The position numbers were made by a program, and so were the translations under genes. From an uncultured Candidatus Saccharibacteria bacterium (GTDB lineage: Bacteria > Patescibacteriota > Minisyncoccia > Phycocordibacterales > UBA12088): a DNA stretch of 53,363 nt. Position 1 is the stretch's first letter. Each line of letters begins with the position of its first letter. Shown here one piece after another: positions 10,741-52,361 of the stretch. The stretch spans positions 1 through 53,363 of the forward strand of contig CAZMPG010000001.1 in assembly GCA_964568345.1 (NCBI GenBank). The letters are read 5' to 3'. Below the pieces are notes generated by a model, which had not been told where the DNA came from, ran no database searches, and worked only from the letters and a program-made list of their open reading frames with translations.

Positions 10741-10746
10741 AGGCCC

Positions 10747-27021: not shown

Positions 27022-27022
27022 A

Positions 27023-28566: not shown

Positions 28567-28605
28567 GATGCTCGCTAGCTGGCGCCGCCTCCGGTGAGGA
28601 TAACC

Positions 28606-29196
28606 CTACGCCGGTGCCATGACGGGGTTGTCGACCATGTCCTCGTCGTCTCGGTACTGCCGTGGCTTTTGGGCAGCCGCATCCTTCGCTTTGCGTTCAT
28701 CCTCCTCCCGGGTTGCTTTGATGTGGAGCAGTACCGCGGTGGTGCACGCGGGAATGAGGATATTGAGTACGGGGAAGAACTTGACGATGAAGGTGGCGAA
28801 GTTGGTGAGGAACCGCTTCGGCGTTGCCGCCCACATGAAGACGCCGTGCGCCATGAACCATATAGTAAAGACGCCGGCAAAGAGGACGTTGCTGAGGACC
28901 GATGCAATTGCAAGGATGAGGGGGCCGAGGGTGATCATGGTGAGTGCGGCGGCAATTGCAGCGGTAATCTTTACACCGACCTGTATAACACACTGAGCAC
29001 CGTGCCAGACGTACCCCGAAATCCCCGCCCCTGCCGCCTTGATGCACTCCGTGCCGAGCGACGATATCCCATAGAATACGAGCGCTGCCGCAGCGATGAG
29101 TGCTGCGACGGGGAGGAGGTCGAAGAGGATGCCGACCGCGACCATGTGGCGGCGCGTGCTCTTCGAGATGCGGTAGGAGACCTGCTCTTCGCTCAT
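28606..29196 (-). CDS. Polytopic membrane protein of the T4SS-like cluster, unknown function
   Basis: About 5 hydrophobic segments. 4-nt overlap with the VirB4 stop. Confidence 0.6.
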   Translation of the reverse strand: MSEEQVSYRISKSTRRHMVAVGILFDLLPVAALIAAAALVFYGISSLGTECIKAAGAGISGYVWHGAQCVIQVGVKITAAIAAALTMITLGPLILAIASVLSNVLFAGVFTIWFMAHGVFMWAATPKRFLTNFATFIVKFFPVLNILIPACTTAVLLHIKATREEDERKAKDAAAQKPRQYRDDEDMVDNPVMAPA

Positions 29197-31019: not shown

Positions 31020-31020
31020 A

Positions 31021-31704
31021 CTATGTGGTGAGTTGGTCGGTAAGGTCAGAGAGCGAGACGGGACGGTCGAGCTCGCCGATATTGAAGAGGCGGTAGAAGA
31101 GCTCGATCACCTCCTCGGTGCCGAGCTGCGCGGTGCGCACGCCACAGCGGCTGAGACCCTGGGAGACGAGGGAAACCCGTTGCTCCATCTGGCTCCGGTA
31201 CTCCTCGAAGATCTGTGGGGTGAGCTTGGCGAGGCCTTCCTCGGGGCTCGCAAACAGTGCGCCGATCCCCCCCCGTACGCCCTGCCCCGGGCCAAAGGCT
31301 GGCGGGCTGTACGGTACGACGACGTAGAAGCCCTTGGTCATGATGCTCGACCCCTCGACAAAGCTCCGTACGAAGTCTATGTACTCACGCACCTGGATCT
31401 TCATGAGCTCGCTCTGCTGCTCGCCGTAGCGCTGCTCAAGGAGTGTGAGGTAGGGGCGGATGTCGAGCTCTCGCGACTGCACGAAGACTTGCACCGAAAA
31501 GTCGAGCGAGTTTAGGAAGCTCTGGAATTGGGCGAGGATGGCTTGCTGCTCGTCTGCCGACTTGAGCACGATGTTTATCGAAGACGCCATGAGGACGGAG
31601 CGTATCGAGCCGTCGCGGAGGATGAGGATGCCGTCGCGCACCTGCTCGATGGGCACGAAGTCTTGGCTCGGGGTGGCGCGGGTGCTGTGCTGGGGGGCGG
31701 GCAT
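31021..31704 (-). CDS. VirB4 N-terminal-domain-like protein (separate ORF)
   Basis: FVPIEQVRDGILILRDGSIRSVLMASSINIVLKSADEQQAILAQFQSFLNSLDFSVQVFVQSRELD resembles the N-terminal region of long VirB4/TraE-type ATPases. Its stop lies 1 nt before the ATPase ATG. Confidence 0.55.
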   Translation of the reverse strand: MPAPQHSTRATPSQDFVPIEQVRDGILILRDGSIRSVLMASSINIVLKSADEQQAILAQFQSFLNSLDFSVQVFVQSRELDIRPYLTLLEQRYGEQQSELMKIQVREYIDFVRSFVEGSSIMTKGFYVVVPYSPPAFGPGQGVRGGIGALFASPEEGLAKLTPQIFEEYRSQMEQRVSLVSQGLSRCGVRTAQLGTEEVIELFYRLFNIGELDRPVSLSDLTDQLTT

Positions 31705-31707
31705 ACG

Positions 31708-32127
31708 TTAGGAAGGTTGTTCACCGCTCTCCTGGGTGTCGAGGTTCCACGCGAGCTCCTTGAGGCGCGACTGGGTGAGGTGTGGGGTGAGGGGGCGTGT
31801 GGGCGCCGCGCTTGCGGCTGCTGCGTGCGCGGCGGCGTGGTGCTTCCCTACCCCCTTCTTCCAGAGGTAGAGCTTGTTGCGGAGCGTGTAAAAGACGGCG
31901 GCGTAGAGGGAGGAGATGAACGGTCGTTCGTTTATCTTCACGAAAGCAAGCGCAAACGCAAGGATGCCGATCGGTGTGCCGAAGATGACGGTGGAGAAGA
32001 AGCCGAACTCCGTGTAGAGGAATACCGCAAAGCCCAGAGCGCCACCGACATAGAGCCCCTGCTTGAAGGTGAGCGGGCCAAAGACCTTATCCTCGAACTC
32101 TATGAACTGTGGTACGGAAAAGCGCAT
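31708..32127 (-). CDS. PrgI/VirB3-like small membrane protein
   Basis: MRFSVPQFIEFEDKVFGPLTFKQGLYVGG followed by two TM segments. Position immediately upstream of VirB4. Confidence 0.55.
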   Translation of the reverse strand: MRFSVPQFIEFEDKVFGPLTFKQGLYVGGALGFAVFLYTEFGFFSTVIFGTPIGILAFALAFVKINERPFISSLYAAVFYTLRNKLYLWKKGVGKHHAAAHAAAASAAPTRPLTPHLTQSRLKELAWNLDTQESGEQPS

Positions 32128-32142
32128 GTGCTGTGGGTACTA

Positions 32143-32190
32143 CTCCTATCCTGGCGTTGTCATTGCGAGCGTGAGCAGAGCAATCCACGT
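32143..32190. repeat. Fragment related to the MITE-like element core
   Basis: GTCATTGCGAG (32159-32169) ... AGCAATCCACG (32179-32189) matches copy A at 994-1004 and 1018-1028. The preceding CTATCCT motif is also shared. Confidence 0.35.
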
Positions 32191-32233
32191 GGTCGGTGCG
32201 GTGTGGTGTATGCAGTATACCGCCCGCCGCCCC

Positions 32234-33040
32234 CTACGGTATCGACTCGCGGTACGGGTCGCGGTTGATCTCGTCGCGGGTTGCGGCTACGTTCTGTGGT
32301 GCCGGTGCGCTGCCTGTGGTGGCGGGGTTCGCACTTCGCTTGTTGCTACTAAGTGCCCGGAGTATCTCGGTCCGCACCGGAGCGAAGACAAGTTCCTCAA
32401 GGCCATGGAGTAGGTGCTCGCGCTGGTCCTGATCACGGAGGATAGAGGTACTTATGAGCTCTCGGAATGCCGCAATGGGGAGTGCTCCCACCGCGACACG
32501 GAGCACACCATCCCGGAGTGCCGCCGTCTGTGAGTCGGTGAGCGAGTACCGTGCCGCTATGTGGTCAACGGCTTGTGCAGCGGTGCTCGAAGCAAGGTAG
32601 GTGCGTACCGTTTCGGGAAGGCGTGCCGCGTACTCCCGCAGCTCGGGGTCACGGATGAGTCTTTCGGCAAGGGGGGTCTCCTTTTCACTCGACCCATTGA
32701 GGGTGACGCCGTGGGAGAGTTGCGCAGCCCCATCCCGCTTGTCCGCTTGCGCGGTGCAGGGGAACACCTCCTTGAGGAGTGCCTGGTAGAGCCGTGTTGC
32801 AGCGTCGGCGGGGAGTGCGAGCTCTTGGGCAATGAATTCCGCAAGTTCTTCGCGGGTGCAGAGTCCCACGACGGTGCCGACGAACAGGTTGCCGAGCCGC
32901 ATGAGCTGGTCGTTAGTGAGATTTTCGCCCTGTCCGGCGTGGGTGAGCGCATTAGCGGTCTCCTGCGCGAGGAGTGCGTCCTGCAGTGTGGGCGCAAGAA
33001 CGCGGAATTGTTTGTCGAGTTGTTCTTTGGTGAAGTGCAT
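32234..33040 (-). CDS. Hypothetical protein of the T4SS-like cluster
   Basis: 268-aa ORF in operon context, 4 nt after the upstream gene. No family recognised. Confidence 0.55.
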   Translation of the reverse strand: MHFTKEQLDKQFRVLAPTLQDALLAQETANALTHAGQGENLTNDQLMRLGNLFVGTVVGLCTREELAEFIAQELALPADAATRLYQALLKEVFPCTAQADKRDGAAQLSHGVTLNGSSEKETPLAERLIRDPELREYAARLPETVRTYLASSTAAQAVDHIAARYSLTDSQTAALRDGVLRVAVGALPIAAFRELISTSILRDQDQREHLLHGLEELVFAPVRTEILRALSSNKRSANPATTGSAPAPQNVAATRDEINRDPYRESIP

Positions 33041-33043: not shown

Positions 33044-35881
33044 CTAGAAGAGGTTTGCGGCAATAGGGTTGGTAACCGAGCGGTATGCATCAATGAGTCG
33101 ACGGTCCTCAGAGCTAGTGTCACTCGAACGGTATGCGACTTCAAACGCCCGCTGTTCCTCGCTCTCTGAGAGTTGCGATCCAGCAGGTCGTCCACCTGCG
33201 GCGAGGATCGCGCTACGTTCATTCTGTACCCGGCTGCGGAATTCAACCATTCTTTGCTGGTTGTTGTATTGTTCAACTACACGGCCCTTCACCCGTTGCA
33301 CCACATCGTTGTTGTGTACCTTGCGCACCTCAGCGATATCAGCAGCCGAAAAGTTGTCAATAACCATGTCGTTGTCTCTAATGAAGTTCCCACTCAACTT
33401 TGCTTTTTGTGCCGGGCGCATTGAGTCGAGCTCATCTCGGAGTGTTCGTCCTGGTATTGGGGGCGGCGTCCCGTTATTTGTGGCTCTCACGAGGTCATTA
33501 AGGTACTCCTCACGCAATTGGCGAACACCATCTTTCTGTGTAGCTGAGACACGTTTACTTTCAAGAATCTTGTCAACGGTTGCCTGCGACATGTTCCGCA
33601 CGGCACGTGTCTCGTTCAAGATACCAGTGCCAAATAGGTCAGCCTCGTGGTCGCCATATCTGCGAATTGCGTCACGTATTACGTTATCCCCACTGTTACT
33701 ATCCAACGCACGATAGATGTCTGCGTAACGTCCGCGGATGAGAGCCTCCCGCTCAGGGTCGTTATATGCTTCATTTTTAAGCACTTGCTCGAAGGTTTCG
33801 GTCGAGAAGTAGCGCGTAACTTCGGGGTTTGCCACGATTCTATCGTGGAGAATGGTCATTTCAGCCTGTGTCATCTTTTCAAGTCGCCTAATCTCATCCG
33901 GGCTTAGTTGTATGTTGCCATTCGCATCTCTCTCACCACTTCGTGTGATCATCCTCATGACATCACCGTAGGCAAGGTTGGTGAGTGCTGCCTTTTCCGC
34001 ACCCGTGTACTCCTTACTGCCTCGCATACCGGAAAGTTGGCTCGATGAGAGTGCCTCCACAAACCGCCCTTCCCTGAAGAATCCTGGGCGGTTATCGCGA
34101 AGCCACTTGAGATCCTCCTGGCTCATACCCTGAACCGTACGTCTGTTTGCCGTCTGGTCAAGAGTACCACCCTCGAAGAGTGCCTCAGCTGCTGCGAGCT
34201 GCTGTTGGCGGCTGAGTGTTGTCTCAAGCTCCTGGGTTCTACCACGATTCGCTTCTGTGCCACGCTTCATGCGATCACGGTATCCCTTCGCCTGCGATTC
34301 AACACCTCGTTGCACCGCTCGACCCACAGCACTTCGCTCTATGAAGCGACCAAACGCTGCGCGTGTGCCACCAGAGTATTCGTTGGTGTTCGGGTCACGG
34401 GCAAAGTGTCGTGCAGCGGCATTCATGTTCGCCTTGCTCAGTCTATCAGCCGCCCAACCGTATGTACGGTCACGGAACCATCGCCCCGATGCTGCTGCGC
34501 CGTGGCCAACCTTGCTTCCCGTCCACTTTGCCACGCGCCCTGTCTTGCGTCCTGTCCACCGAGCGGTCTTGTTCACACCCTTCTTCCACATCCCCATTGC
34601 ACTCGCCGACATACTCCCCCCAACTTCCCGCGCGACCGAGAGCGAGAGAATCAGAAAGCCGGTCATGAGGACGAGGTAAAAGACGATCATGGTCGAGTTG
34701 GGGTCCCCGACGTCCGCGACGTTGGACAGGACGTTTTTTTCACCGCCGCCGAAGAGCGCCATCATGCTCTCCGCGATCTTGTACACGACGTACCACATGA
34801 GCATGAGGACCGGCGCCACGAACGATTGTGCCATGAGTGTGCTCCACCACTTCCTCCCCCAGTCGAAGACCTCGGTGAGGTACGACACGAATGCGACCGG
34901 TGAGAGGACGATGAGCATGATGAGCACGAGGAAGCGGCTCATGAGGATGAACGCCCCCGCGCCGAATACAAAGGTGAGCACGAGGAAGAAGATCGCGGCG
35001 ACGATCGAGACATTGCCGATTGCAAAAGCTCTTTGCTCTACGTTCTCATTCTTTTTATAGTCGGTTTTGAACACCGTGACGACCTTCGATATATTGAAGA
35101 ATGCCCCAGCGATGCCGTTCGCGAGGCACTCTTTCGCATTCGCATCCAACTTCCCCTCGATCGGCTTATCACATCCCACCCCCCCATTCGATGAGCTCTG
35201 CTGGAGGAGCATTGCATAGATCTGCACCGTCGCGAGGTTCGAGATGTCAATGATGACCTTCGTCACGGTGATGCTGAAGTTGACGAGGAGTGCGGCGAAG
35301 AGCACCTTGCCGAGCATCTGCTTCGAGCCAAACTTACTCGAGCCAACGATGATCGAGATACCGACGAAGATGGTGAGGAAGACGAGGAAGACGTTTGCGA
35401 TGTCGCGGAGGAGCATCCAGGTGGTCGTGATACCGATGAGGTTCCCTACGACGACCCCCATGCTCACGACGAGCTCCATGACGACGTAGTTGAGCACGTA
35501 CCCCGCGATGCCGGATACCCACATGCAGAAGATCATGAAGCGGTATAGGACGTACCCGTAGCAGCCCTTGAACGTGGTATCGGTGAAGCTGCCGCTATTG
35601 AAGCAGCCGAATTCCGGCATGTTGTCCCCTGCCGTCTTGGCGGCAGCGCCAGAAGCATTTGCCTGCGGATTGTTGGAAACCGGTGGAGTATTGCTCTGTG
35701 TCGGCGGTGTCGCTTGTGCAGCAGCAGTGTGGGGCGCGAGCGTTCCCCCCACACCCACCGACACTACCGCGATGAGGAGGGCGGTAAGGGTGCGGAGGAA
35801 TCGTTGCGGTGTGGGGAGGCGTAGCATGGTATGTTTAGGGGCGATCCTTCGCCCGGCTTGGTGCAGTGGGTAGCTCCGCAT
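33044..35881 (-). CDS. VirB6/TrbL-like polytopic membrane protein with a ~520-aa hydrophilic C-terminal domain (alternative start at 35827)
   Basis: Signal-like N-terminus (FLRTLTALLIAVVSVGVGG), then about 7-8 TM segments (residues ~120-440), then a long charged C-terminal region. The VirB6-like call rests on topology and context. Confidence 0.65.
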   Translation of the reverse strand: MRSYPLHQAGRRIAPKHTMLRLPTPQRFLRTLTALLIAVVSVGVGGTLAPHTAAAQATPPTQSNTPPVSNNPQANASGAAAKTAGDNMPEFGCFNSGSFTDTTFKGCYGYVLYRFMIFCMWVSGIAGYVLNYVVMELVVSMGVVVGNLIGITTTWMLLRDIANVFLVFLTIFVGISIIVGSSKFGSKQMLGKVLFAALLVNFSITVTKVIIDISNLATVQIYAMLLQQSSSNGGVGCDKPIEGKLDANAKECLANGIAGAFFNISKVVTVFKTDYKKNENVEQRAFAIGNVSIVAAIFFLVLTFVFGAGAFILMSRFLVLIMLIVLSPVAFVSYLTEVFDWGRKWWSTLMAQSFVAPVLMLMWYVVYKIAESMMALFGGGEKNVLSNVADVGDPNSTMIVFYLVLMTGFLILSLSVAREVGGSMSASAMGMWKKGVNKTARWTGRKTGRVAKWTGSKVGHGAAASGRWFRDRTYGWAADRLSKANMNAAARHFARDPNTNEYSGGTRAAFGRFIERSAVGRAVQRGVESQAKGYRDRMKRGTEANRGRTQELETTLSRQQQLAAAEALFEGGTLDQTANRRTVQGMSQEDLKWLRDNRPGFFREGRFVEALSSSQLSGMRGSKEYTGAEKAALTNLAYGDVMRMITRSGERDANGNIQLSPDEIRRLEKMTQAEMTILHDRIVANPEVTRYFSTETFEQVLKNEAYNDPEREALIRGRYADIYRALDSNSGDNVIRDAIRRYGDHEADLFGTGILNETRAVRNMSQATVDKILESKRVSATQKDGVRQLREEYLNDLVRATNNGTPPPIPGRTLRDELDSMRPAQKAKLSGNFIRDNDMVIDNFSAADIAEVRKVHNNDVVQRVKGRVVEQYNNQQRMVEFRSRVQNERSAILAAGGRPAGSQLSESEEQRAFEVAYRSSDTSSEDRRLIDAYRSVTNPIAANLF

Positions 35882-36024
35882 CTGCCACGCACCTTCTTAC
35901 TGTAGAGCTGCTGGTACGACGCCTGTGGTGAGGCGATGATGGAAGCGGTGCGACATGGGCACCACAGATAGCCGCACCTACGCGGCACCTCGCGGCAGCT
36001 GTCCCCAGCCATCCCATACGTTAC

Positions 36025-36080
36025 AGTATACGACGGTCTGTGGATAAACCTAGGGACAAGAGGTGGGTAGTCTGTGGATT
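36025..36080 (-). promoter_or_regulatory. Duplicated promoter/operator module, copy 1 (-10 TATACT plus two DnaA-box-like motifs)
   Basis: 51 of 56 nt identical to 42018-42073. Contains TGTGGATAA (36039-36047), TGTGGATT (36073-36080), and AGTATA (36025-36030), which is TATACT on the minus strand. Confidence 0.5.
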
Positions 36081-36088: not shown

Positions 36089-38803
36089 CTACGGTGCCCC
36101 AACAGGCAGTATGGATTCGCAGTGCATACCGTCGGCTGCAAGGCGGTACCCAGCTGCGCAGTAGTATTCGCAAGGTTCCGAAGTGTTAGGCACGTGGTAG
36201 TGGTACGCTTGCGTCTGGTCTTGTGACGGGACTACCGAATCGCCATCATAGAGAAGTGCGTGCGGGGGAATCGAGCCGGTACAGGTGCCAGGTCCATCCT
36301 GTTGATCTCCCTCCACCATTACAGAGGCGTGTGCAATGAGGTTGTGATAGGTGAGAGTAAACAGTGACGAACCTGGTTGTAGGCCACGGATATCACCATC
36401 TACAGGGCCTGGGTGACTGGGGTTTTCCGGCACATTTTCGTAGCTCACTACAAGTGGATCCGAATTGGTAAGGGTATGGCCAGGCATATAGACAGTTACA
36501 TCTGGCCCGTGGTTTTCAATACCGTCACAGGTGAGTGGGGTAGGCGAACCAGGTCCTCGATAGTACCCACGGAGCATGCCGTTGCTGCCTACCCCAAGCA
36601 TCACAACCTTCGAAGGCTGGAGTTGTAGCGCGCTGGAGCCGCACAGTACGAGGGAACCTGCAGATTCCGGTGTCGGTCTTGCACAAGTACTCCCGTTCCA
36701 AGCTTGAAACGGAGGGCAATCACCCGCCTCAGCGAGTCGTGCGGTGATATTGGTACTTGCATTCTTGTAGGACACGGTGATCACACTCGATCCACCCTGT
36801 TCTGGCGGTGACCAATGTACCGCACCCGCTGACGCTGTTGACTGGATCCCCACGAGACAGCGAGATGCGTTGCGATACAACCCACCAAGGCAGTGTTCAA
36901 GATCAGTTGCAAAACTGAGGGTAATAACATCGGGATTACTCGATGTCCAATAGTCCGCACCGAATACGTACTCATCCCCAGCCTGACTCTCGATATTTTC
37001 GCATGTTATGGGATCTCCCTGTGCTCGATACCATGCGACCAAAACATCACTTATCCACACCAAAAAGGGGTTTCTGTACTCCTCACTATGTATGGTGTCT
37101 CCGAACCCACAAATAACCATGGAAGGGCCGTCTTGTGGTGGTGGTGGCGGTGGTGGTGGGGTCTCCTTCATCGTCAATGGCTCAACCTCGACCGTAAAGA
37201 CACCCGCATTCGGAACCTCACCCTGCTCGATACCCGTGCCGATCCTGAGTGCACGTGCCTGATCCCCCACGTATATCACAAACTCGTAGTCGTTCTCACT
37301 CGAGTACTCGGGGGTTACTGTAGTGAACCCCACTCCCTCTACGAAGAGTATGTAGGTCTTGATCGGCACGCCACCGCTCCTGTACGAGGTTGTGGTCGAG
37401 TACGAAAGGTGGGCCCCGGCATGACTTGGTGGGGTACTGCTCTCGAGAAGTTCCCGTGTCACCGTGTAGTAGAATGCATCATTCTCTGAAAATGCGGCAT
37501 GGCTTCCACTACCTGCCCCGGTCACCCGCACCCGCACGTAGCCACTGTAGGTCGCCGCGGTTCTACCGGTCGTAATGTCGTTGAAGGAAGCGGCAAGCAC
37601 CTCCGTCGGCCCAGCACTCTCGAAGCAGTCAAAGATGTGTACACCACAGTCCTGCTCCCCTCCCCCTCCTGGAGGTGTGGGCGGAGGTGTTGGCTTAACG
37701 ATCTCACCCTCCCACCCCTCGGCACCCGGGTGCGTCTGCCAGTCGGTTGACGTCGCCGCCATTGCTGCGTTCCAGTAGTCGGTGTCCTTCCCCCCAGAGC
37801 CAAGTCCGAGGAGCCCCTCCTGCGCGGTGGTGAGCACCTTCTCGACGAGCGCCGCGAGGAGCGCATTGATGATCTCCCCCAGCTCGTCGGCGACGGTGAG
37901 CTCCTCAAGCGCCCCTCCCGACCACTTATTGACCTGCTCGGATATGTACTCGCCGGGGGTGCAGGTGTACTCGTCGTCGTTCGTCTTCGAGTCTCCATCC
38001 ATGTCGCAGCGCTGGGAGAGCCAGCCCTTGCCCCAGTTCGTGAGGTTCACCTCATAGCTCTGTGCCGCGCCCGACCGCTTCGCCGCTTCCGACTGGAGGG
38101 AGAAGTACGTGCCGTAGGGGTTGTTCATGTCGTTCGTCATCGCCATGAGCGCAGGTATGCCGCCCTCGGCGAAGTGGAAGTTCCCGCCGACGAACTTCTT
38201 GTACTTGTTGCCGAAGTCCACCTCCCCCTGCACATTGACCTCGACGCCCTTCGAGAAGACCTTGTCGAGGCTACAGGAGAGCATCCCGAGATTATTCTTC
38301 TGGCCGAATACGTCGAATGCGAAACTGAATATGATGTCAATACGGAAGGGGCTACAGAGGAGCTTGTCGAGCCCCTCATTGAAGAGGAATGCGGATACGG
38401 TGTTCAGCATGACACCCTTGAAGAAAGCGTGCGGGTCGGTCACGAACGCCGGTGAGCCCTTGAAGCCGCCGCGGATCCACGAAATGATGCTCTTGGTGAT
38501 GGATTTGATCACCACCTCTTTGATGATCCAGAAAATGGTATCTATGACGCACTCCTTGATGGTGTTTTCCCACGTAGAAGCGGCAGTAGAACCCGTATTG
38601 ATGTTTGTGGTAAAGGGGAAAACTGGCACAGCAAGGGTAGCTTCAGCGGCAGTCCCAGCGATCCCAAACAAGGCCGCTATTGCTGTGGCAAGCCCGCACG
38701 TTGCTTCCGCCGTCCGTACCGGCTGCATCCCGAGGTACGCCGACGGTGCGACGACCGTGATGGCGAGGAGGAGGGCAGTAAGGGTGCGGAGGAGGGGGGT
38801 CAT
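36089..38803 (-). CDS. Large surface/secreted protein, paralog B (904 aa): shared N-terminal module, poly-Pro linker, Cys-rich Big_2-like C-terminal tip
   Basis: Residues 1-547 are identical to paralog A. The unique C-terminus has two similar modules containing YWTSSNPDVITLSF and LTNSDPLVVSYEN. Confidence 0.8.
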   Translation of the reverse strand: MTPLLRTLTALLLAITVVAPSAYLGMQPVRTAEATCGLATAIAALFGIAGTAAEATLAVPVFPFTTNINTGSTAASTWENTIKECVIDTIFWIIKEVVIKSITKSIISWIRGGFKGSPAFVTDPHAFFKGVMLNTVSAFLFNEGLDKLLCSPFRIDIIFSFAFDVFGQKNNLGMLSCSLDKVFSKGVEVNVQGEVDFGNKYKKFVGGNFHFAEGGIPALMAMTNDMNNPYGTYFSLQSEAAKRSGAAQSYEVNLTNWGKGWLSQRCDMDGDSKTNDDEYTCTPGEYISEQVNKWSGGALEELTVADELGEIINALLAALVEKVLTTAQEGLLGLGSGGKDTDYWNAAMAATSTDWQTHPGAEGWEGEIVKPTPPPTPPGGGGEQDCGVHIFDCFESAGPTEVLAASFNDITTGRTAATYSGYVRVRVTGAGSGSHAAFSENDAFYYTVTRELLESSTPPSHAGAHLSYSTTTSYRSGGVPIKTYILFVEGVGFTTVTPEYSSENDYEFVIYVGDQARALRIGTGIEQGEVPNAGVFTVEVEPLTMKETPPPPPPPPQDGPSMVICGFGDTIHSEEYRNPFLVWISDVLVAWYRAQGDPITCENIESQAGDEYVFGADYWTSSNPDVITLSFATDLEHCLGGLYRNASRCLVGIQSTASAGAVHWSPPEQGGSSVITVSYKNASTNITARLAEAGDCPPFQAWNGSTCARPTPESAGSLVLCGSSALQLQPSKVVMLGVGSNGMLRGYYRGPGSPTPLTCDGIENHGPDVTVYMPGHTLTNSDPLVVSYENVPENPSHPGPVDGDIRGLQPGSSLFTLTYHNLIAHASVMVEGDQQDGPGTCTGSIPPHALLYDGDSVVPSQDQTQAYHYHVPNTSEPCEYYCAAGYRLAADGMHCESILPVGAP

Positions 38804-38811
38804 GGGGTGAG
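37163..38811. repeat. 1,649-bp perfect direct repeat, copy 1
   Basis: Identical to 39415-41063 at a constant offset of 2,252 nt. All ORF-track translations in several frames are identical in both copies. Boundaries were found by direct comparison. Confidence 0.9.
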
Positions 38812-38829
38812 CGCCTAATCACGACGCAC

Positions 38830-41055
38830 TCAGTAGTCCAAGAGTTGTACCCGACATATATCGGTACTGCCACAGGTTTGTTGTGGTCTGAAACTCAGGT
38901 AAAGTTGGGTATTTTCCGGGACGACACAGTACCCTTCGCACGGGTTGATGGTTCCTCCGGTAGGTAGTGTAGTGGGGCATGAGTTCGTGCGTGCTATATC
39001 AATAGTGAACCCGTTTTCAGGGCCAATCTGACAGTGTGGATCAGAAGCAGTTATTTCCCCTGGTGTTGTCGTCACCGCTCCCTGCGCCACACCTCCGCCG
39101 GAAGTCTCTCCTGCCTCGGCGCGGTCAATCTTGTACCTATCTGTATTGTTTTGATCCGGAACCTTGCCAAGGTGTGATGATGGAAATGTAATTCGTGCAG
39201 CATACGTTGTACCTGACTGTAGACTTCCGTTATGTCCACAACCGGTTGTTTGCCAGTCCTCACCATTGATGCACCCGGGAACGAACAGTCGATTGCTTGT
39301 GGGGGAGAGATCAAACACAATTACATTTTGTTGTCCCGGTGGGCTCCACACCCCGCTGCCCGGGTCGCCTGTGCCGCCAGTATCATCGTCATCCCCTTCC
39401 CCGCCATCCTCCACCTCCTTCATCGTCAATGGCTCAACCTCGACCGTAAAGACACCCGCATTCGGAACCTCACCCTGCTCGATACCCGTGCCGATCCTGA
39501 GTGCACGTGCCTGATCCCCCACGTATATCACAAACTCGTAGTCGTTCTCACTCGAGTACTCGGGGGTTACTGTAGTGAACCCCACTCCCTCTACGAAGAG
39601 TATGTAGGTCTTGATCGGCACGCCACCGCTCCTGTACGAGGTTGTGGTCGAGTACGAAAGGTGGGCCCCGGCATGACTTGGTGGGGTACTGCTCTCGAGA
39701 AGTTCCCGTGTCACCGTGTAGTAGAATGCATCATTCTCTGAAAATGCGGCATGGCTTCCACTACCTGCCCCGGTCACCCGCACCCGCACGTAGCCACTGT
39801 AGGTCGCCGCGGTTCTACCGGTCGTAATGTCGTTGAAGGAAGCGGCAAGCACCTCCGTCGGCCCAGCACTCTCGAAGCAGTCAAAGATGTGTACACCACA
39901 GTCCTGCTCCCCTCCCCCTCCTGGAGGTGTGGGCGGAGGTGTTGGCTTAACGATCTCACCCTCCCACCCCTCGGCACCCGGGTGCGTCTGCCAGTCGGTT
40001 GACGTCGCCGCCATTGCTGCGTTCCAGTAGTCGGTGTCCTTCCCCCCAGAGCCAAGTCCGAGGAGCCCCTCCTGCGCGGTGGTGAGCACCTTCTCGACGA
40101 GCGCCGCGAGGAGCGCATTGATGATCTCCCCCAGCTCGTCGGCGACGGTGAGCTCCTCAAGCGCCCCTCCCGACCACTTATTGACCTGCTCGGATATGTA
40201 CTCGCCGGGGGTGCAGGTGTACTCGTCGTCGTTCGTCTTCGAGTCTCCATCCATGTCGCAGCGCTGGGAGAGCCAGCCCTTGCCCCAGTTCGTGAGGTTC
40301 ACCTCATAGCTCTGTGCCGCGCCCGACCGCTTCGCCGCTTCCGACTGGAGGGAGAAGTACGTGCCGTAGGGGTTGTTCATGTCGTTCGTCATCGCCATGA
40401 GCGCAGGTATGCCGCCCTCGGCGAAGTGGAAGTTCCCGCCGACGAACTTCTTGTACTTGTTGCCGAAGTCCACCTCCCCCTGCACATTGACCTCGACGCC
40501 CTTCGAGAAGACCTTGTCGAGGCTACAGGAGAGCATCCCGAGATTATTCTTCTGGCCGAATACGTCGAATGCGAAACTGAATATGATGTCAATACGGAAG
40601 GGGCTACAGAGGAGCTTGTCGAGCCCCTCATTGAAGAGGAATGCGGATACGGTGTTCAGCATGACACCCTTGAAGAAAGCGTGCGGGTCGGTCACGAACG
40701 CCGGTGAGCCCTTGAAGCCGCCGCGGATCCACGAAATGATGCTCTTGGTGATGGATTTGATCACCACCTCTTTGATGATCCAGAAAATGGTATCTATGAC
40801 GCACTCCTTGATGGTGTTTTCCCACGTAGAAGCGGCAGTAGAACCCGTATTGATGTTTGTGGTAAAGGGGAAAACTGGCACAGCAAGGGTAGCTTCAGCG
40901 GCAGTCCCAGCGATCCCAAACAAGGCCGCTATTGCTGTGGCAAGCCCGCACGTTGCTTCCGCCGTCCGTACCGGCTGCATCCCGAGGTACGCCGACGGTG
41001 CGACGACCGTGATGGCGAGGAGGAGGGCAGTAAGGGTGCGGAGGAGGGGGGTCAT
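38830..41055 (-). CDS. Large surface/secreted protein, paralog A (741 aa): shared N-terminal module, acidic/Gly linker, different Cys-containing C-terminal tip
   Basis: Residues 1-547 are identical to paralog B. The unique 194-aa C-terminus starts VEDGGEGDDDDTGGTGDPGSG. ATGA overlap with the upstream gene. Confidence 0.8.
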   Translation of the reverse strand: MTPLLRTLTALLLAITVVAPSAYLGMQPVRTAEATCGLATAIAALFGIAGTAAEATLAVPVFPFTTNINTGSTAASTWENTIKECVIDTIFWIIKEVVIKSITKSIISWIRGGFKGSPAFVTDPHAFFKGVMLNTVSAFLFNEGLDKLLCSPFRIDIIFSFAFDVFGQKNNLGMLSCSLDKVFSKGVEVNVQGEVDFGNKYKKFVGGNFHFAEGGIPALMAMTNDMNNPYGTYFSLQSEAAKRSGAAQSYEVNLTNWGKGWLSQRCDMDGDSKTNDDEYTCTPGEYISEQVNKWSGGALEELTVADELGEIINALLAALVEKVLTTAQEGLLGLGSGGKDTDYWNAAMAATSTDWQTHPGAEGWEGEIVKPTPPPTPPGGGGEQDCGVHIFDCFESAGPTEVLAASFNDITTGRTAATYSGYVRVRVTGAGSGSHAAFSENDAFYYTVTRELLESSTPPSHAGAHLSYSTTTSYRSGGVPIKTYILFVEGVGFTTVTPEYSSENDYEFVIYVGDQARALRIGTGIEQGEVPNAGVFTVEVEPLTMKEVEDGGEGDDDDTGGTGDPGSGVWSPPGQQNVIVFDLSPTSNRLFVPGCINGEDWQTTGCGHNGSLQSGTTYAARITFPSSHLGKVPDQNNTDRYKIDRAEAGETSGGGVAQGAVTTTPGEITASDPHCQIGPENGFTIDIARTNSCPTTLPTGGTINPCEGYCVVPENTQLYLSFRPQQTCGSTDICRVQLLDY

Positions 41056-41063
41056 GGGGTGAG
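39415..41063. repeat. 1,649-bp perfect direct repeat, copy 2
   Basis: See copy 1 (37163-38811). Confidence 0.9.
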
Positions 41064-42011
41064 GTGGTTTGCTGCTATGTACGCCGTGATGTCGGTGTGT
41101 GCGGCGACGAGTCGCTTGCCGTACTCGATATACACACCGAGCGCTGCCGCGGCGCGGAGCGGGTCGTCCTCAAGGTGGGTGGCGCTGTCGAGGATGCCGA
41201 CGAAGGCGACGAGGGCGCTGAGGTAGGCGGTCTGGAGCGCCACCGCATCGTCGGGTACGGGCGCGTGCTTGAGTGTCTCGATGTGCGCGGAGTACACCCG
41301 CACTGTGGTACGGAGCTTCTCGAGCGCTTGCGTGCGGTCCCCGCCCTGGCTTATCTCCATGAGCGCTTCATTCTCATTGGGTGCCTCGGTCGTCATCGCG
41401 CGGATCTCCCGCAGATAGGTTGCGATGTAGGCCTTCCGTGTCTCTGGTGTTGCGGGCACGACCGTGAGCCCTTGAGCATCGAACGAGGGGAGCGAGAGCC
41501 CCCTCGACGCTTGGGTGATGGCGCTGTCCACCATCTGCGCCTGCTCCGCGGAGGATGGCTTGCTGTTGGGGTCGCTCTGGAGCCGCGCCATGAAGGAGCT
41601 GAAGACGGTGCGAGAGAGCGCTTCGGTCGCGGTGAGGGGTGTCGAGGATGCCGTGGGCGAGCTGGTTCCCGTATCCTGTGCATACGCCCCCGCCCCCACG
41701 GTGAGCGGGTCGTGCCCTGTCCGCACCTCCTCACCATCGGTCTGCCCGTCGCCGTCGGTGTCGGGGAGTGCCGGGTTTGTGCCCCAGAGCGTCTCCTGCC
41801 AGTTGAGGAGGCTATCGCCGTCGCTGTCTTCCTCGAAGGGGGTTGAGGTTGCGAGTGCTACCGTGGCGGTCGGTTCCTCGGTGTTTTGTCGCTCCGCCGC
41901 GGGGTGGTCATACACGAGTCGTGAGGCGAGCACGACGAAGAGGAGCGCAAGCACACCAAACGCAACCGCTACCATGCGGTTCGCCGCAGCAGCCGACCCC
42001 AGTCGTCCCAT
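41052..42011 (-). CDS. Membrane-anchored protein with thrombospondin-type-3-like Ca-binding repeats
   Basis: Start at ATG 42011 (MGRLGSAAAANRMVAVAFGVLALLFVVLA), with TATACT 6 nt upstream. Contains DSDGDSLLNWQETLWGTNPALPDTDGDGQTDGEEVRTGHDP. Confidence 0.65.
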   Translation of the reverse strand: MGRLGSAAAANRMVAVAFGVLALLFVVLASRLVYDHPAAERQNTEEPTATVALATSTPFEEDSDGDSLLNWQETLWGTNPALPDTDGDGQTDGEEVRTGHDPLTVGAGAYAQDTGTSSPTASSTPLTATEALSRTVFSSFMARLQSDPNSKPSSAEQAQMVDSAITQASRGLSLPSFDAQGLTVVPATPETRKAYIATYLREIRAMTTEAPNENEALMEISQGGDRTQALEKLRTTVRVYSAHIETLKHAPVPDDAVALQTAYLSALVAFVGILDSATHLEDDPLRAAAALGVYIEYGKRLVAAHTDITAYIAANHLTP

Positions 42012-42017
42012 GTCTCT

Positions 42018-42073
42018 AGTATACGACGATATGTGGATAAACCTAGGGACAGGAGGTGGGTAGCCTGTGGATT
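42018..42073 (-). promoter_or_regulatory. Duplicated promoter/operator module, copy 2
   Basis: TATACT (reverse complement of 42018-42023), TGTGGATAA (42032-42040), TGTGGATT (42066-42073). Immediately upstream of the first gene of the minus-strand cluster. Confidence 0.5.
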
Positions 42074-42147
42074 TTCGCCTACATGATATTATGTAGGTTT
42101 GCGGGTTGTGGCATGTTGTGTGTCGCTCCCGTGCTATACTCACTCGC

Positions 42148-43194
42148 ATGGTGCGTGCCGTGCTCGTCTGTGTGTGCGTTGCTGGTGCCCTAGCGCTACA
42201 CTTCCACGGTGCGCGTGTTGCGTACGCAGCCCCTCCCCCATCGTCCTTTTTTCGAGAGTTGTCCGTTGGAATGTACGGCGAGGACGTGCGTGCTCTGCAG
42301 CACATACTCAACCTAGACGAATCCACGAGAATACGCGGGTCTGGGGCTGGGTCACCGGGTAAGGAAACACAGTACTTTGGCGGCCTCACGCGCGACGCGC
42401 TGGTGCGGTTTCAAGAGAAGTACCGACGTGACATACTCACGCCATTTGGGCTCGTGTCGGGGACGGGGCGTGCAAATTGGCGCACACTCGCGGTGCTCGT
42501 GAGGGTTCGTAGCACACTCCAGGGTAGCGGGGCAAGCCAGGCGGTGAAGGGGGTCGTTGCGTCTAGTTCTAGAGACACTCTGACCCAGAAAGAGCCAGCG
42601 AAGACCTCTTCCCAAGGCGTATTCGACCCAAATCGCGAGAGCCGGATAGCAATGATCGCCGCCGTTGAGTATGTTGCAAGAAAGCAAGGGAAAACTAACA
42701 AGGAAATAGCACATTTGAAAGAGTTGGTGACGAAAAGTATGGCCACAAGCACCGATCTTAAGCGTGCTTTCGAGGATTTGGTAAGGAAAACTTCCGCGAA
42801 GTATAAAAAAGTGTCTCGTTCCGGCTTCCCAGCTTTTTTTGCACGTGTCGCCGGTTTTCTCGGGGAGTTGTTTATGCCTGAGCAAGCGTATGCCGGGTTG
42901 GGAACTCCGTTTGGGGGGCACCTTAAGGCGGCGGTCCCTTGTGCTTGCAGCGATACGTGGCTTATCACACTTGCCCCGCCACTCCCACCGTCGTTTGTTG
43001 TCCTGCTCTCCTACATACCCGAGACCCAGCTGTTCCTCTATGAAAACATACCGATGACCTCCGAACTGCTTGGGTTCTATGAACCGGGCGCCGGAATATG
43101 TCTTGAGCCGGGAACCCCTTGTGAACCAATACCGAACGAAGGTCTCATCTCACCTTTTGTCGGTTCATCGATGATGGGTTTCACTGATCCGTAG
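42148..43194 (+). CDS. Secreted peptidoglycan-binding (PG_binding_1-like) domain protein
   Basis: Signal peptide MVRAVLVCVCVAGALALHF. GEDVRALQHILNLDE...YFGGLTRDALVRFQEKY. TATACT lies 8 nt upstream of the ATG at 42148. Confidence 0.7.
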   Translation: MVRAVLVCVCVAGALALHFHGARVAYAAPPPSSFFRELSVGMYGEDVRALQHILNLDESTRIRGSGAGSPGKETQYFGGLTRDALVRFQEKYRRDILTPFGLVSGTGRANWRTLAVLVRVRSTLQGSGASQAVKGVVASSSRDTLTQKEPAKTSSQGVFDPNRESRIAMIAAVEYVARKQGKTNKEIAHLKELVTKSMATSTDLKRAFEDLVRKTSAKYKKVSRSGFPAFFARVAGFLGELFMPEQAYAGLGTPFGGHLKAAVPCACSDTWLITLAPPLPPSFVVLLSYIPETQLFLYENIPMTSELLGFYEPGAGICLEPGTPCEPIPNEGLISPFVGSSMMGFTDP

Positions 43195-43230: not shown

Positions 43231-43266
43231 ACAGTGGCTATGTCGCAAGGCATAGCCACTGTTTTA
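43231..43266. terminator. Bidirectional terminator hairpin overlapping the rsmA stop
   Basis: 12-bp stem ACAGTGGCTATG (43231-43242) / CATAGCCACTGT (43251-43262), then TTTA. Confidence 0.6.
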
Positions 43267-44071
43267 CGGTGAGTTCTTCCGGTCTCGAAGAGGGTGGGAC
43301 GACACATCGGTCAAAAATATTGGCGGATAATGCTCCTTTTAAAGAAGTACCAATCTTTTTCCGTTTAGTTGAAAAAGCGAGATGTGCGAGCGTAAAGACG
43401 CGTTCTTCGCAGCGCTTGTCGGCGAACTTTTCTCTCGAAATTTCATGTATGGCGAGGATCGCGCTCTCGACTCTTGGTGGTGGTGAAAACGCCCCCGCCT
43501 TCACCACCCGCACAAGCTCCGGTGTGCCGTATGCTTTGACCGAGATCGAGAGAAGGCTCTCCTTTCCGTCGCGCGCCACGATGCGCTCCGCAACCTCCCT
43601 CTGTACGAGGAGCGCCATGGCGGAGGGCTGGTGTGCTGTAGAGAGGAAGGTGCGGATGAGGTAGCCCGTAAGGTAGTAGGGGATGTTAGCGACAAGCACG
43701 TAGTTTTCAGGTTTCAGTCCTGGGTGCGAAGACGGATCGAAGCCGCGAATATCCTCATTGAGGAGCGACAGCGTACCGTTCGCTAGTTCCGTGGCAAACG
43801 TCACGCGGAGCTCGGCGGCGAGGGTCGGGTCCTTCTCGACCGCGAGCACCTTCCCTGCACGTTTGAGGAGTTCGCGGGTGAGGATACCGTGGCCCGGGCC
43901 TATTTCGAGCACAGTATCCTTTGTGGTAAGGGGTAGCGCGTCGGCAACCCACCCGGCTACCTCCGGCCGCGTGAGGAAGTGCTGCCCCAGCCTTGCCCCC
44001 CGCCGTTTCCTCGGTGCACGTGCTACCCCGTCGCTCCTTTTCTCTTTTCTCTTTCCTCTTTTCTCTCGCAT
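43238..44071 (-). CDS. rsmA: 16S rRNA (adenine1518/1519-N6)-dimethyltransferase
   Basis: LGQHFL, VLEIGPGHGILT, ANIPYY. The ATG at 44071 is preferred over the long ORF extension that overlaps uvrD. Confidence 0.9.
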   Translation of the reverse strand: MREKRGKRKEKRSDGVARAPRKRRGARLGQHFLTRPEVAGWVADALPLTTKDTVLEIGPGHGILTRELLKRAGKVLAVEKDPTLAAELRVTFATELANGTLSLLNEDIRGFDPSSHPGLKPENYVLVANIPYYLTGYLIRTFLSTAHQPSAMALLVQREVAERIVARDGKESLLSISVKAYGTPELVRVVKAGAFSPPPRVESAILAIHEISREKFADKRCEERVFTLAHLAFSTKRKKIGTSLKGALSANIFDRCVVPPSSRPEELTVKQWLCLAT

Positions 44072-44072
44072 A

Positions 44073-45992
44073 CTAATCCAAGTACACCACCTTCCCCCGC
44101 GGGGCCGCCCGCTCCTCTGCGAGGTACTCCTCGGGGATATCGAGGATGAAGCGCGATGGAGCGGTGTGGGTGAGGGTGCCGAACACGGTGCGGGTGAGTG
44201 CGTAGGAGAGGTGTACCTGGTGCTGGGCTCGGGTGAGGGCAACGTAGAAGAGTCGCCGCTCCTCCTCGACGTCGTGGGCACCCCTATCATCCTGCCGCTC
44301 GTGGGGGAAGAGGCCATCCTCGAGGCCGGTGATGAAGACGTGTGAGAATTCAAGGCCCTTCGACGCATGGACGGTCATGAGTGCTACAGCGCCCTGCTGC
44401 TCGGTATGATCAAGCTCGTCCTGGTCGGTGGCGAGCGATGCGTCTTCGATGAGGCGCAGGACCCCCTCCGGAGCAGGAAGCGAGTCGTAGCGTGTTGCGG
44501 CGAGGGAGACGAGCTCCTCGACGTTTTGCTTCCGCTCAATATCCTCGTCGAGGTCGCTACGGAAGCTCGCCCCGATGCCGGAGCGTTCTATGGCGTACGC
44601 AACCGCTTCGCGCGTTGGTTTTTCCGCCACCACACGAGCGATATCATCGAGTATGACGAAAAAATCGTCAATCCTTTTCTGCATGGCAGGGGTGAGGGCG
44701 CTCCGATCCCCGCCGAACCAGCGCTCCACAGTCGTCTTCCCAATACCGCGCTGTGGCTCGTTGATGGCGCGGCGGAGGTCCGTTTCGCTCTCGCGGTTGA
44801 GCGCGCCACGGAGGTAGGCGAGCACGTCGCGCACCTCCTTGCGGTCGAAGAATCGGGTGCCGAGCACGCGGTACGGTACCCCGGCGGCTAAGCATGCATC
44901 CTCAAGCACGCGCGACTGAAAGTTGGCGCGGTAGAGCACCGCAATGTCGTGGTACGGTACGCCCTGCGCCGCTTGCGCGGCAATTGCTTCGACGACTTGG
45001 AGCGCCTCGTCCCGCTCATGGTATGCGGGGGTGAGCGAAACCGGTTCGCCGATGTCGTTCTCGGTGAAGAGCGTTTTGTCTCGTCGGCGCACGTTGCGCT
45101 GGATGATATGATTACTCACCGCCACGATGGTCTTCGTGGACCGGTAGTTCTGCTCGAGTTTGAGCACCGTCGCATCGGGAAAATGTGTTTCAAATGCGAG
45201 GATATTCTCGATCGTTGCCCCCCGAAACGTGTACACATTCTGGTCCACGTCGCCGACGCAGAAGATGTTGCGCGTTTCCCCCGCTATACTCCGTGCTATG
45301 TCGTACTGTACGCGGTTTGTGTCCTGGTACTCGTCTACGTGGAGGTAGCACCAACGCCGCTCGAGCACATCTCGCACGTCGGTGTGGAGGAGTTCGTTAG
45401 TGCGGAGGAGGAGGTCGTCGAAGTCGAGGGCATGCTCCTGTGCGAGGAGGGTGTCGTACCGCTGCCAGATGCTCCCGACGGTGCCAGGGAACCATGCATT
45501 ACCTGCCTTTTCCTGGTATGCGGCGCACGAAAGCCCATCGCTCTTGGCGCGCGATATGGTGCTAAGTACCACGCGTGGCTCGAACCGCTTGTCATCCTCG
45601 CCGACCTCGCGTGTCGCGCGCTTGATCGTGCGGAGCGAGTCTGCGCGGTCAAGGATGGTGAAGGAGCGTGGTATGCCGATGCGGTGCCCATACGTACGGA
45701 GAAGCTGTGCACAGAGTGCGTGGAAGGTGGTGACGGTCGGTCCCTCATCGGCGAGAAGGTTGTGTGCCGCAAGGAGTGCCAGAATACGCTCACGCATCTC
45801 TCGGGCCGCTTTGTTGGTGAAGGTGATAGCGAGGATGCTCCGGGGAGCCACCCCACCCTTGACCAGATGCACGATACGATGCGCGATGGTCTTCGTCTTC
45901 CCCGCCCCCGCCCCCGCAAGGACGAGCACCGGGCCATCCGTAGCGCATACCGCCATTTTTTGGGCTTCATTGAGCCCTGCAAGGTGATCCAT
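44073..45992 (-). CDS. UvrD/PcrA/Rep family ATP-dependent DNA helicase
   Basis: LNEAQKMAV...VLAGAGAGKTKTIAHRI, HVDEYQDTN, LEQNYRST, VHASKGLEF. Confidence 0.9.
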   Translation of the reverse strand: MDHLAGLNEAQKMAVCATDGPVLVLAGAGAGKTKTIAHRIVHLVKGGVAPRSILAITFTNKAAREMRERILALLAAHNLLADEGPTVTTFHALCAQLLRTYGHRIGIPRSFTILDRADSLRTIKRATREVGEDDKRFEPRVVLSTISRAKSDGLSCAAYQEKAGNAWFPGTVGSIWQRYDTLLAQEHALDFDDLLLRTNELLHTDVRDVLERRWCYLHVDEYQDTNRVQYDIARSIAGETRNIFCVGDVDQNVYTFRGATIENILAFETHFPDATVLKLEQNYRSTKTIVAVSNHIIQRNVRRRDKTLFTENDIGEPVSLTPAYHERDEALQVVEAIAAQAAQGVPYHDIAVLYRANFQSRVLEDACLAAGVPYRVLGTRFFDRKEVRDVLAYLRGALNRESETDLRRAINEPQRGIGKTTVERWFGGDRSALTPAMQKRIDDFFVILDDIARVVAEKPTREAVAYAIERSGIGASFRSDLDEDIERKQNVEELVSLAATRYDSLPAPEGVLRLIEDASLATDQDELDHTEQQGAVALMTVHASKGLEFSHVFITGLEDGLFPHERQDDRGAHDVEEERRLFYVALTRAQHQVHLSYALTRTVFGTLTHTAPSRFILDIPEEYLAEERAAPRGKVVYLD

Positions 45993-49057: not shown

Positions 49058-49258
49058 GTAACTATTCACCTATTCTCAGCACCGCATGATTCAATCGTCT
49101 GTACACAAACATGGGGTTTCTTCGTCTTTGCGAGCCCGCAGGCGAAGCAAACCAGGTCTGGATCGCTTCGCCTGCGGTCATCCCCGCAGCAGGCGGGGGG
49201 CTCGCGATGACGACCAGAGCAGCCATACTGTTGCTACAGTGCTGGGAATAATAGTTAC
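49058..49258. repeat. MITE-like non-coding element, copy B (inverted relative to copy A)
   Basis: 5' TIR GTAACTATTCACCTATTCTCAGC (49058-49080). The reverse complement of the 3' end (49241-49258) is GTAACTATTATTCCCAGC. The interior shares TTTCTTCGTCTTTGCGAGCCC, a long hairpin (GCAGGCGAAGC...GCTTCGCCTGC) and CTCGCGATGACGAC with the reverse complement of copy A. Confidence 0.6.
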
Positions 49259-52276: not shown

Positions 52277-52325
52277 ATTCACCAACGACACCTGTCCTTT
52301 ATCCCCATATACACAGAGTTATCCA

Positions 52326-52361
52326 CAACAAAGAGCGGCCCGTGAGAGCCGCTCTTTGTTG
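52326..52361. terminator. 14-bp perfect hairpin abutting the 3' end of tRNA-Gly
   Basis: CAACAAAGAGCGGC (52326-52339) / GCCGCTCTTTGTTG (52348-52361), 8-nt loop. Confidence 0.55.

Follow-up and report, generated by a model that had tools for sequence, protein, structure and literature searches.

In the Trw system of Bartonella, trwJ (VirB5) and trwL (VirB2) are tandemly amplified, and the amplification has been linked to host-specific adhesion. In the type IV secretion systems (T4SS) of Patescibacteria, VirB2-like pilins occur in tandem arrays, for which an adaptation to different hosts has been proposed (Quinonero-Coronel et al. 2025; PMC12102498). The monoderm-type systems are often located near dnaA, dnaN and ksgA, and a survey detected no adhesins in the T4SS loci of Patescibacteria (PMC12102498). 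In Southlakia epibionticum, the one species tested, the T4SS is indispensable to epibiotic growth (Wang et al. 2023; PMC10633639; reviewed in PMC12857230). Here, we describe a T4SS operon on contig CAZMPG010000001.1 of assembly GCA_964568345.1 (53,363 nt, in the following called the window) in which two adjacent genes, geneB and geneA, encode proteins with an identical N-terminal part of 547 residues and unrelated C-terminal domains, designated tip B and tip A. We consider it somewhat probable that the pair represents a recently duplicated or gene-converted T4SS surface protein that presents two binding domains as alternatives, likely for the surface of the host cell. The tandem pair adds a further form to a theme already known, the tandem diversification of T4SS surface components and modular tip exchange.

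The locus is of the same type and has the same gene neighbourhood as the MPF_FATA-like T4SS described for Patescibacteria (Quinonero-Coronel et al. 2025; Wang et al. 2023). It resembles the pilin arrays in that a component of the T4SS, here presumably surface-exposed, has been multiplied in tandem. However, the pilin arrays consist of diverged whole-gene paralogues with an average identity of 25% (PMC12102498), whereas the pair in the window is 100% identical over 547 aa and differs in the C-termini. Moreover, the duplicated gene belongs to another, unnamed family.

The two copies of the direct repeat (Table 1) are 1,649 nt long and 100% identical, without a single mismatch, at an offset of 2,252 nt, as revealed by direct comparison and in agreement with self-BLAST. 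A perfect repeat of 1.65 kb cannot be due to chance. Outside the repeat the identity of the flanks falls at once to the random level, approximately 16-33% per 100 nt, and the window contains no N bases. Both genes are intact open reading frames (ORFs). The shared residues end with ...VEVEPLTMKE and are followed by different linkers, poly-Pro in geneA and acidic/Gly in geneB, and then by Cys-rich tips that are unrelated to each other (best BLASTP E value 0.26, over 11 residues). The preliminary description of this DNA, made from the letters and a list of ORFs, had reported the perfect repeat with its boundaries, the 8 nt upstream and the 547 shared codons, the two intact tandem genes with their linkers and the unrelated, Cys-containing tips; all of this was reproduced.

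The repeat starts 8 nt before the ATG of each gene. In front of geneB, the upstream gene, the 8 nt (CTCACCCC) represent the final codons of the preceding 319-aa gene, the TGA of which overlaps the ATG of geneB as ATGA. In front of geneA, the downstream gene, they are preceded by an 18-nt spacer (38812-38829) that follows the geneB stop codon. This difference, gene end in one copy and spacer in the other, reveals which of the copies is in the ancestral setting, and that only 8 shared bases join the end of tip B to the start of the repeat. The geneB stop codon and the geneA ATG are separated by 26 nt, and the unique segment of 603 nt between the repeats consists of the tip B cassette and the 18-nt spacer. 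Self-BLAST uncovered no other repeats touching the tips and no inverted repeats occur in the 34-43 kb region, for which reason a diversity-generating retroelement or an invertible shufflon was rejected.

Since the divergence of the repeat is zero, the duplication must be very recent or the copies are held identical by gene conversion. A plain duplication would have left identical tips; the proposed origin therefore combines a tandem duplication with an in-frame fusion, or more than one, at the linker after E547. If the repeats recombined by a RecA-type mechanism, the 2,252-bp unit of repeat and tip B would be lost, leaving the 319-aa gene followed by the repeat and tip A, or would be amplified. 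As this unit is the only one that can be excised, tip B would be labile and tip A would not be lost by such recombination. The earlier statement that recombination between the copies deletes one tip thus applies to tip B and not to tip A. A second family gene was looked for within about 6-10 kb in 83 related loci and found in none of them, a single-copy state that points to a one-off duplication rather than a recurrent cassette array.

The tips differ from the shared part also in composition. The bulk G+C content is 0.543 in tip A and 0.530 in tip B, 0.591 in the shared part and 0.601 in the window, which places the tips at approximately the 5th percentile of windows of equal size. The step is larger in the G+C content of third codon positions (GC3), with 0.751 for the shared part as compared with 0.499 for tip A and 0.474 for tip B; in 11 reference genes GC3 averages 0.79, with 0.60 in the lowest 50-codon window. 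The lower G+C of the unique parts, previously judged by eye, is therefore real, modest in bulk and strong at GC3. Along the shared part, GC3 ranges from 0.72 to 0.92 in the core (see below) and assumes intermediate values of 0.58-0.70 in aa 336-547.

The 547-aa shared part is a composite: a signal/anchor region is followed by a Cys-containing core (aa ~80-335), and this by a lineage-specific domain that looks beta-rich by its sequence. Only seven relatives, all of them limited to aa ~80-335, emerged from a word-indexed search among 5.8 billion proteins. A profile search with the core (core profile score 737 bits) in a database of 1.84 billion representative proteins retrieved 5,428 of them with E ≤ 1e-3, among these 2,291 with E ≤ 1e-30, and a scan of one genome per species identified 80 loci, nearly all in metagenome-assembled genomes of the Paceibacteria/Parcubacteria type (Kaiser-, Taylor-, Zambryski- and Campbellbacteria). 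The core represents a large unnamed family that is widespread in Patescibacteria. Most members have a size of 480-560 aa. The core of geneA and geneB contains the motifs SWIxGGFxGSPAFVTD, LCSPF, CTPGEY and ADExxEIINALL; in the core alignments the W, GF, P, PG and ADE..E columns are invariant and four Cys are nearly invariant. Neither the core nor the full geneA and geneB proteins matched an entry in Pfam, NCBIfam or the PDB sequences.

The position of the family gene is well conserved. Of 81 related loci, 75 encode a VirB6-like transmembrane (TM) domain downstream of it on the same strand, at a median distance of 800 nt past the core; TrsD was detected in 57 of the 81 loci and VirB4 in 53, and in 49 the family gene is preceded by the 319-aa gene. 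In a typical member, approximately 200 residues follow the ADE motif, with a weakly coiled-coil-like profile. In the window proteins this part is replaced by aa 336-547, which have no homologue in any relative and are absent from the 81 related loci. The shared part had been regarded as one conserved module; this is correct for the core, which is family-conserved, and not for aa 336-547, which are lineage-specific and of intermediate GC3.

Hydrophobic segments are confined to aa 1-59 of both proteins. The proteins contain 20 (geneA) and 16 (geneB) Cys residues, all of which are located within or after this region and four of which are family-conserved. Because of this arrangement the products are probably exported and disulfide-bonded. 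Neither protein has an LPXTG or lipobox motif, and a Gram-positive T4SS adhesin of the PrgB/TraO type was rejected on account of the missing LPXTG motif and the missing Pfam match. A second hydrophobic, Ala/Gly-rich segment covers aa 34-59 (codons 1-79: 38566-38803 and 40818-41055), with a GC3 of 0.52-0.56; at this place the relative encoded at locus L009 carries an Ala/Gly-rich insertion of approximately 90 aa.

L009 encodes the closest relative (47% identity), which ends in another C-terminal domain, Ig (immunoglobulin)-like by sequence appearance only. Long members of the family carry C-terminal Beta_helix, F5_F8_type_C (discoidin) and Bact_surface_Ig-like domains, and since they do so, a variable, binding-type C-terminus appears to be a property of the family. 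When 110 retrieved family proteins with the ADExxEI motif were ranked by their C-terminal extension, the geneA product was the longest and the geneB product the eighth-longest. The tips had been proposed to be exchangeable, and the variable C-termini of the family, Ig-like, discoidin or beta-helix, speak for this proposal; in the 83 loci the gene is single-copy, and no orphan cassettes were found.

Tip A consists of two tandem repeats of approximately 150 aa (BLASTP E value 2e-5) and a Cys-rich end. When the isolated tips and the middle part were compared with Pfam at E ≤ 10, a sub-threshold cEGF match at this C-terminal end was the only one obtained. No homologue of tip A was found in the collection of 5.8 billion proteins or in the 81 related loci. 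Tip B displays 37-41% identity to three clusters (P0010-12) of free-standing proteins of 211-244 aa, which possess a signal peptide, an N-terminal Cys motif, a poly-Pro linker and a beta-sandwich with the same GDPGSGVW domain start as tip B. These relatives, including two IMG/VR matches, are encoded only on phage or mobile-element contigs (Table 1), and a scan of metagenomes with tip B returned only one viral contig, which was already known. On two of the contigs (L098 and L001) the gene of the tip B relative directly follows a gene of approximately 540 aa that has no Pfam or PHROGs match. Comparison of a structural model of tip B with BFVD revealed one uncharacterised phage protein (E 2.6e-4). 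Because the only relatives of tip B are phage and mobile-element proteins, a horizontal origin is plausible for at least this tip, and the GC3 step together with the phage relatives fits a capture of foreign DNA. The earlier suggestion that the tips were acquired horizontally is thus plausible at least as far as tip B is concerned.

The exchange of tail-fibre tips in phages is similar in that a conserved proximal part carries distal domains that are swapped at linkers, and in that one of the tips has relatives among phage and mobile-element proteins only. In contrast to tail fibres, the gene in the window is cellular, chromosomal and part of a secretion operon, and the proteins related to tip B in phages are small, bear signal peptides and are not recognisable as tail fibres.

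A second comparison concerns T4SS proteins of the stalk cap and pilus tip, of the VirB5/TrbJ/CagL type. The gene pair is located directly upstream of a VirB6 homologue, as in the order trbJ-(trbK)-trbL of R751; a Sec signal peptide is predicted, and a short motif at the mature N-terminus is common to several family members and TrbJ. In NCBIfam searches 4 of 53 family members resembled TrbJ (best E value 1.2e-5) in the signal peptide and the first ~25 mature residues. The window proteins differ in being larger, Cys-rich and equipped with additional beta domains. Membership in the VirB5/TrbJ family was examined by NCBIfam searches with 53 and then 10 members, by phmmer with R751 TrbJ, and by hhalign against a single TrbJ and against an alignment of seven TrbJ sequences. 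It was rejected, since the NCBIfam TrbJ matches reached 14-20 bits, compared with cut-offs of 225-286, and were limited to the first ~50 residues, and since hhalign of the core alignment against the seven-sequence alignment yielded a probability of 2% over 24 columns. A profile search of the PDB with the family core at E ≤ 10 did not identify VirB5/TraC, and matches to Pfam DUF4141 in two of the 53 members (E 9e-4) are not interpretable. A VirB5-like role is a lead only; functional analogy is possible, and homology is not supported. The literature searched contains no report of a VirB5 counterpart in the T4SS of the Patescibacteria clade. One may speculate, and we consider it rather unlikely, that the unnamed family is the long-missing VirB5-like cap or pilus tip of the essential Patescibacteria T4SS, where it would serve as a scaffold for fused host-recognition domains, some of them taken from phages; the tandem pair would in that case show tips in the course of capture and exchange, a process that sets or broadens the range of host cells to which the episymbiont can attach.

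The neighbourhood of the pair bears traces of an earlier rearrangement. A promoter-like element is present in two copies (36025-36080 and 42018-42073), each with a perfect DnaA box (TTATCCACA) and the sequence TATACT 6-7 nt before an ATG, a spacing that suggests leaderless transcripts. The downstream copy is part of a remnant of approximately 310 nt that precedes the VirB6-like gene and extends into its start. This remnant matches the beginning of the operon in colinear order, 36080-35912 corresponding to 42073-41905 (172 nt, 74%, E 1e-27) and 35799-35769 to 41045-41015 (31 nt, 94%). The diverged but colinear remnant indicates an older duplication of the same segment at the locus. The VirB6-like protein begins with a signal peptide of the module type (…LRTLTALL…), unlike its homologue at L009, which implies that this signal peptide was probably acquired. 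DnaA-box-like 9-mers with at most one mismatch occur 16 times in the window, compared with 5.5 expected, and none of 100 shuffles reached 16; further DnaA-box sites are located at 21390, 37051 and 52319. dnaA and dnaN lie 15-20 kb from the promoter copies. The T4SS operon may be under DnaA control.

The window represents an origin-proximal part of the chromosome of a member of the Paceibacteria (Patescibacteria, candidate phyla radiation) with a monoderm-type T4SS operon. It contains dnaA (20011-21486, minus strand), dnaN (18653-19753, minus strand) and ksgA (RrnaAD match, 43238-44368), and also polA, ruvB, ruvC, yidC, uvrD and genes for a penicillin-binding protein and RNase Y. The operon is read from the minus strand, from approximately 42.0 to 25.7 kb, and starts with the 319-aa gene, followed by geneB, geneA and the VirB6-like gene, the product of which has multiple TM segments and no Pfam match. 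The order of the genes is conserved on three related contigs (L002, L003 and L008; GCA_041920275.1, Candidatus Paceibacterota), where it extends from uvrD and ksgA to the gene that follows the pilin, and where a single 485-aa homologue takes the place of geneB and geneA. The VirB4 match and this gene order substantiate what had been stated before, a T4SS locus in a genome of the episymbiont type. No relaxase was encountered among the ORFs scanned, which comprise part of the set.

In the VirB6-like gene the C-terminal ~500 codons (33044-34560) have a GC3 of 0.42-0.60, compared with 0.64-0.92 in the TM half, and the hydrophilic C-terminal half is present in only one of 81 related loci. It constitutes a second hypervariable, compositionally atypical extension in the T4SS operon. 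Between ksgA and the operon lies a divergent ORF of 362 aa (42106-43194, plus strand) with a sub-threshold PG_binding_1 match, at the position of which relatives have a 420-aa gene. An assembly ATPase of the type IV pilus/type II secretion system type (10642-12405, plus strand; T2SSE E 4e-108) is encoded approximately 15 kb from the T4SS operon. Two imperfect palindromes of approximately 42 nt (52323-52364 and 49136-49177) are 86-88% self-complementary, one of them beside a tRNA-Gly gene.

Table 1. Positions of the tandem genes, their parts and the surrounding T4SS operon in the window, and of the tip B relatives on their own contigs
Feature	Positions	Strand	Description
Repeat copy 1	39415-41063	-	8 nt of the 319-aa gene 3' end and geneB codons 1-547
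Repeat copy 2	37163-38811	-	same 8 nt and geneA codons 1-547
geneB (741 aa)	38830-41055	-	aa 1-547 shared, acidic/Gly linker, tip B aa 548-741
geneA (904 aa)	36089-38803	-	aa 1-547 shared, poly-Pro linker, tip A aa 548-904
Tip B cassette	38830-39414	-	includes stop codon; GC 0.530, GC3 0.474
Tip A cassette	36089-37162	-	includes stop codon; GC 0.543, GC3 0.499
Family core (aa ~80-335) in geneA	37799-38566	-	equivalent in geneB 40051-40818
Lineage-specific middle part (aa 336-547)	37163-37798	-	PT-rich linker and domain beta-rich by sequence
Operon promoter-like element	41985-42073	-	TATACT 6 nt before ATG; perfect DnaA box TTATCCACA
319-aa gene, first of the operon	41052-42011	-	membrane-anchored, TSP3-type repeat; true start ATG 42011; translationally coupled to geneB
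Decayed older copy	35769-36080	-	promoter and first ~105 nt of the 319-aa gene, then signal-peptide codons of the module; internally deleted
VirB6-like gene (945 aa)	33044-35881	-	polytopic, TM segments aa 97-403, ~520-aa hydrophilic C-terminal extension; directly downstream of geneA
Remaining T4SS operon	25726-33040	-	268-aa, PrgI/VirB3-like, TrsD/TraC-like, VirB4, 196-aa, 351-aa, VirB2-like pilin candidate and 431-aa genes
PrgI/VirB3-like	31708-32127	-	Pfam PrgI E 4.1e-5, 24.5 bits, below gathering score 27
TrsD/TraC-like	31021-31704	-	NCBIfam TrsD E 2.1e-7
VirB4	29193-31019	-	NCBIfam conju_CD1110 E 2.6e-108, 363 bits, cut-off 325; Pfam P-loop_TraG 4.7e-23
VirB2-like pilin candidate (163 aa)	27023-27514	-	T4SS_pilin E 0.003, below cut-off; two hydrophobic helices
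Tip B relative, contig L001	10001-10636		contig with matches to Prim-Pol/D5, methyltransferase, YqaJ, Amidase_2, a tail-fibre-like gene and a virion structural protein
Tip B relative, contig L098	7770-8474		contig with SU10-type portal and SLT
Tip B relative, contig L004	5633-6367		contig with SLT and SNase
Tip B relative, contig L097	7767-8525		adjoins a 2,059-aa methyltransferase-helicase

In the mechanism we propose, the family core would dock the protein to the membrane-distal part of the T4SS, a role assigned to the core because it is a fixed component adjacent to VirB6. The C-terminal domains would face outward on their flexible linkers. geneB and geneA would be transcribed together with the rest of the operon, since no promoter-like or terminator-like site was found on the minus strand between the two genes and geneB is coupled to the first gene. 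Tip A, with its two tandem repeats and a Cys-rich knob, and tip B, a predicted beta-sandwich, would provide one machine with two contact specificities. The target would most likely be the surface of the host cell, as expected for an obligate episymbiont.

Several observations weigh against this interpretation. It is derived from a single metagenomic contig and from the anatomy of the sequence. The protein collection searched contains the genes on this contig only, and neither close relatives nor the same arrangement were found in the metagenomes of the Joint Genome Institute. The AlphaFold2 (AF2) prediction of the 904-aa protein from a nine-sequence alignment had a pLDDT (predicted local distance difference test score) of 34; with such a value for the shared part, it is the synteny from which the docking role of the core is read. 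The AF2 model of tip B, an all-beta sandwich, is of medium confidence (pLDDT 66), and Foldseek revealed no significant match to it in the PDB (best E 0.085). No adhesin, lectin or Ig family was recognised in either tip by Pfam and NCBIfam. In addition, the low GC3 of the tips may mark a non-core or fast-evolving status, as in the C-terminal half of the VirB6-like protein, rather than a recent foreign origin.

Among the alternatives, a real duplication without a role in diversification is the one that fares best, although we consider it improbable. The pair would then be a neutral or transient structural variant of one lineage, with a redundant copy that is going to be lost. The lack of any divergence is compatible with a very young event, all 83 related loci have one copy of the gene only, and the direct repeats render the arrangement unstable. 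A plain duplication would, however, have produced identical tips. Both tips are intact, in frame, Cys-rich and joined exactly at the linker, which requires an extra fusion that has survived.

We assign a slightly lower probability to an assembly artefact, in which two strains or alleles of one locus, one with tip A and one with tip B behind the repeat, or a wrong number of repeat copies, were threaded into a tandem pair. That a perfect repeat of 1,649 nt exceeds short reads and most insert sizes is a further point to be held against a real pair: the assembly graph, in which the repeat is entered from upstream, left through tip B, entered again and left through tip A, is a simple loop, the number of traversals of which the assembler has to guess. 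Moreover, the protein collection contains one carrier contig only and the metagenome searches yielded no independent contig. The junction composed of the tip B stop codon, 18 nt and CTCACCCC-ATG is difficult to reconcile with an artefact. It shares 8 nt only, too few for a k-mer-based mis-join, so that reads must link the 3' end of tip B to the 5' end of the repeat, and two repeat copies, or a circle, must exist in one molecule. Neither ORF is disrupted, and both are in frame. The neighbouring remnant of the older duplication, with an identity of 74-94%, cannot be an artefact of assembly and makes a real, rearrangement-prone locus more credible.

Less probable still is a function of the tips on the cell's own envelope or in nutrition, such as wall remodelling or the capture of glycans or nutrients, instead of the recognition of a partner cell. 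The phage genes related to tip B adjoin genes for SLT lytic transglycosylases, and the lysozyme inhibitor PliG is one of the weak matches of tip B in Foldseek (E 0.085); all of these similarities are non-significant, however, and no catalytic family was detected.

A pair of polymorphic toxins or effectors, in which a conserved N-terminal delivery region would carry alternative C-terminal toxins exported by the T4SS, is very unlikely: the sharp switch at a domain boundary from an identical N-terminus to unrelated, compositionally foreign C-termini is as in the Rhs, CdiA and MafB loci, but neither tip contains a toxin or enzyme domain in Pfam or NCBIfam, even at E ≤ 10, no immunity gene or orphan C-terminal cassette is present, each tip has its own full-length N-terminal part, tip A consists of tandem repeats and tip B of a predicted beta-sandwich, and the N-terminal signal peptide indicates Sec export rather than recognition as a T4SS substrate. 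The preliminary description had noted that there is no room for an immunity gene in the 26-nt gap behind geneB; this is also true of the second gap, the 207 nt between geneA and the VirB6-like gene, which is occupied by the promoter remnant. Its preference for adhesion and host range over toxicity agrees with the lack of a toxin domain and of an immunity gene; no binding-domain family was detected, and binding remains the presumed function.

A surface protein of the T4SS with two alternative binding domains thus is the interpretation we retain. The family to which it belongs, presumably exported, adjacent to VirB6 and variable at the C-terminus, is a concrete candidate for the element by which the T4SS of Patescibacteria makes contact with the host. 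Some members carry C-terminal domains of the lectin or Ig type, and the pair in the window carries two tips that are unrelated to each other and compositionally foreign. Together they provide a testable model in which Patescibacteria would change their host range through the capture of domains.

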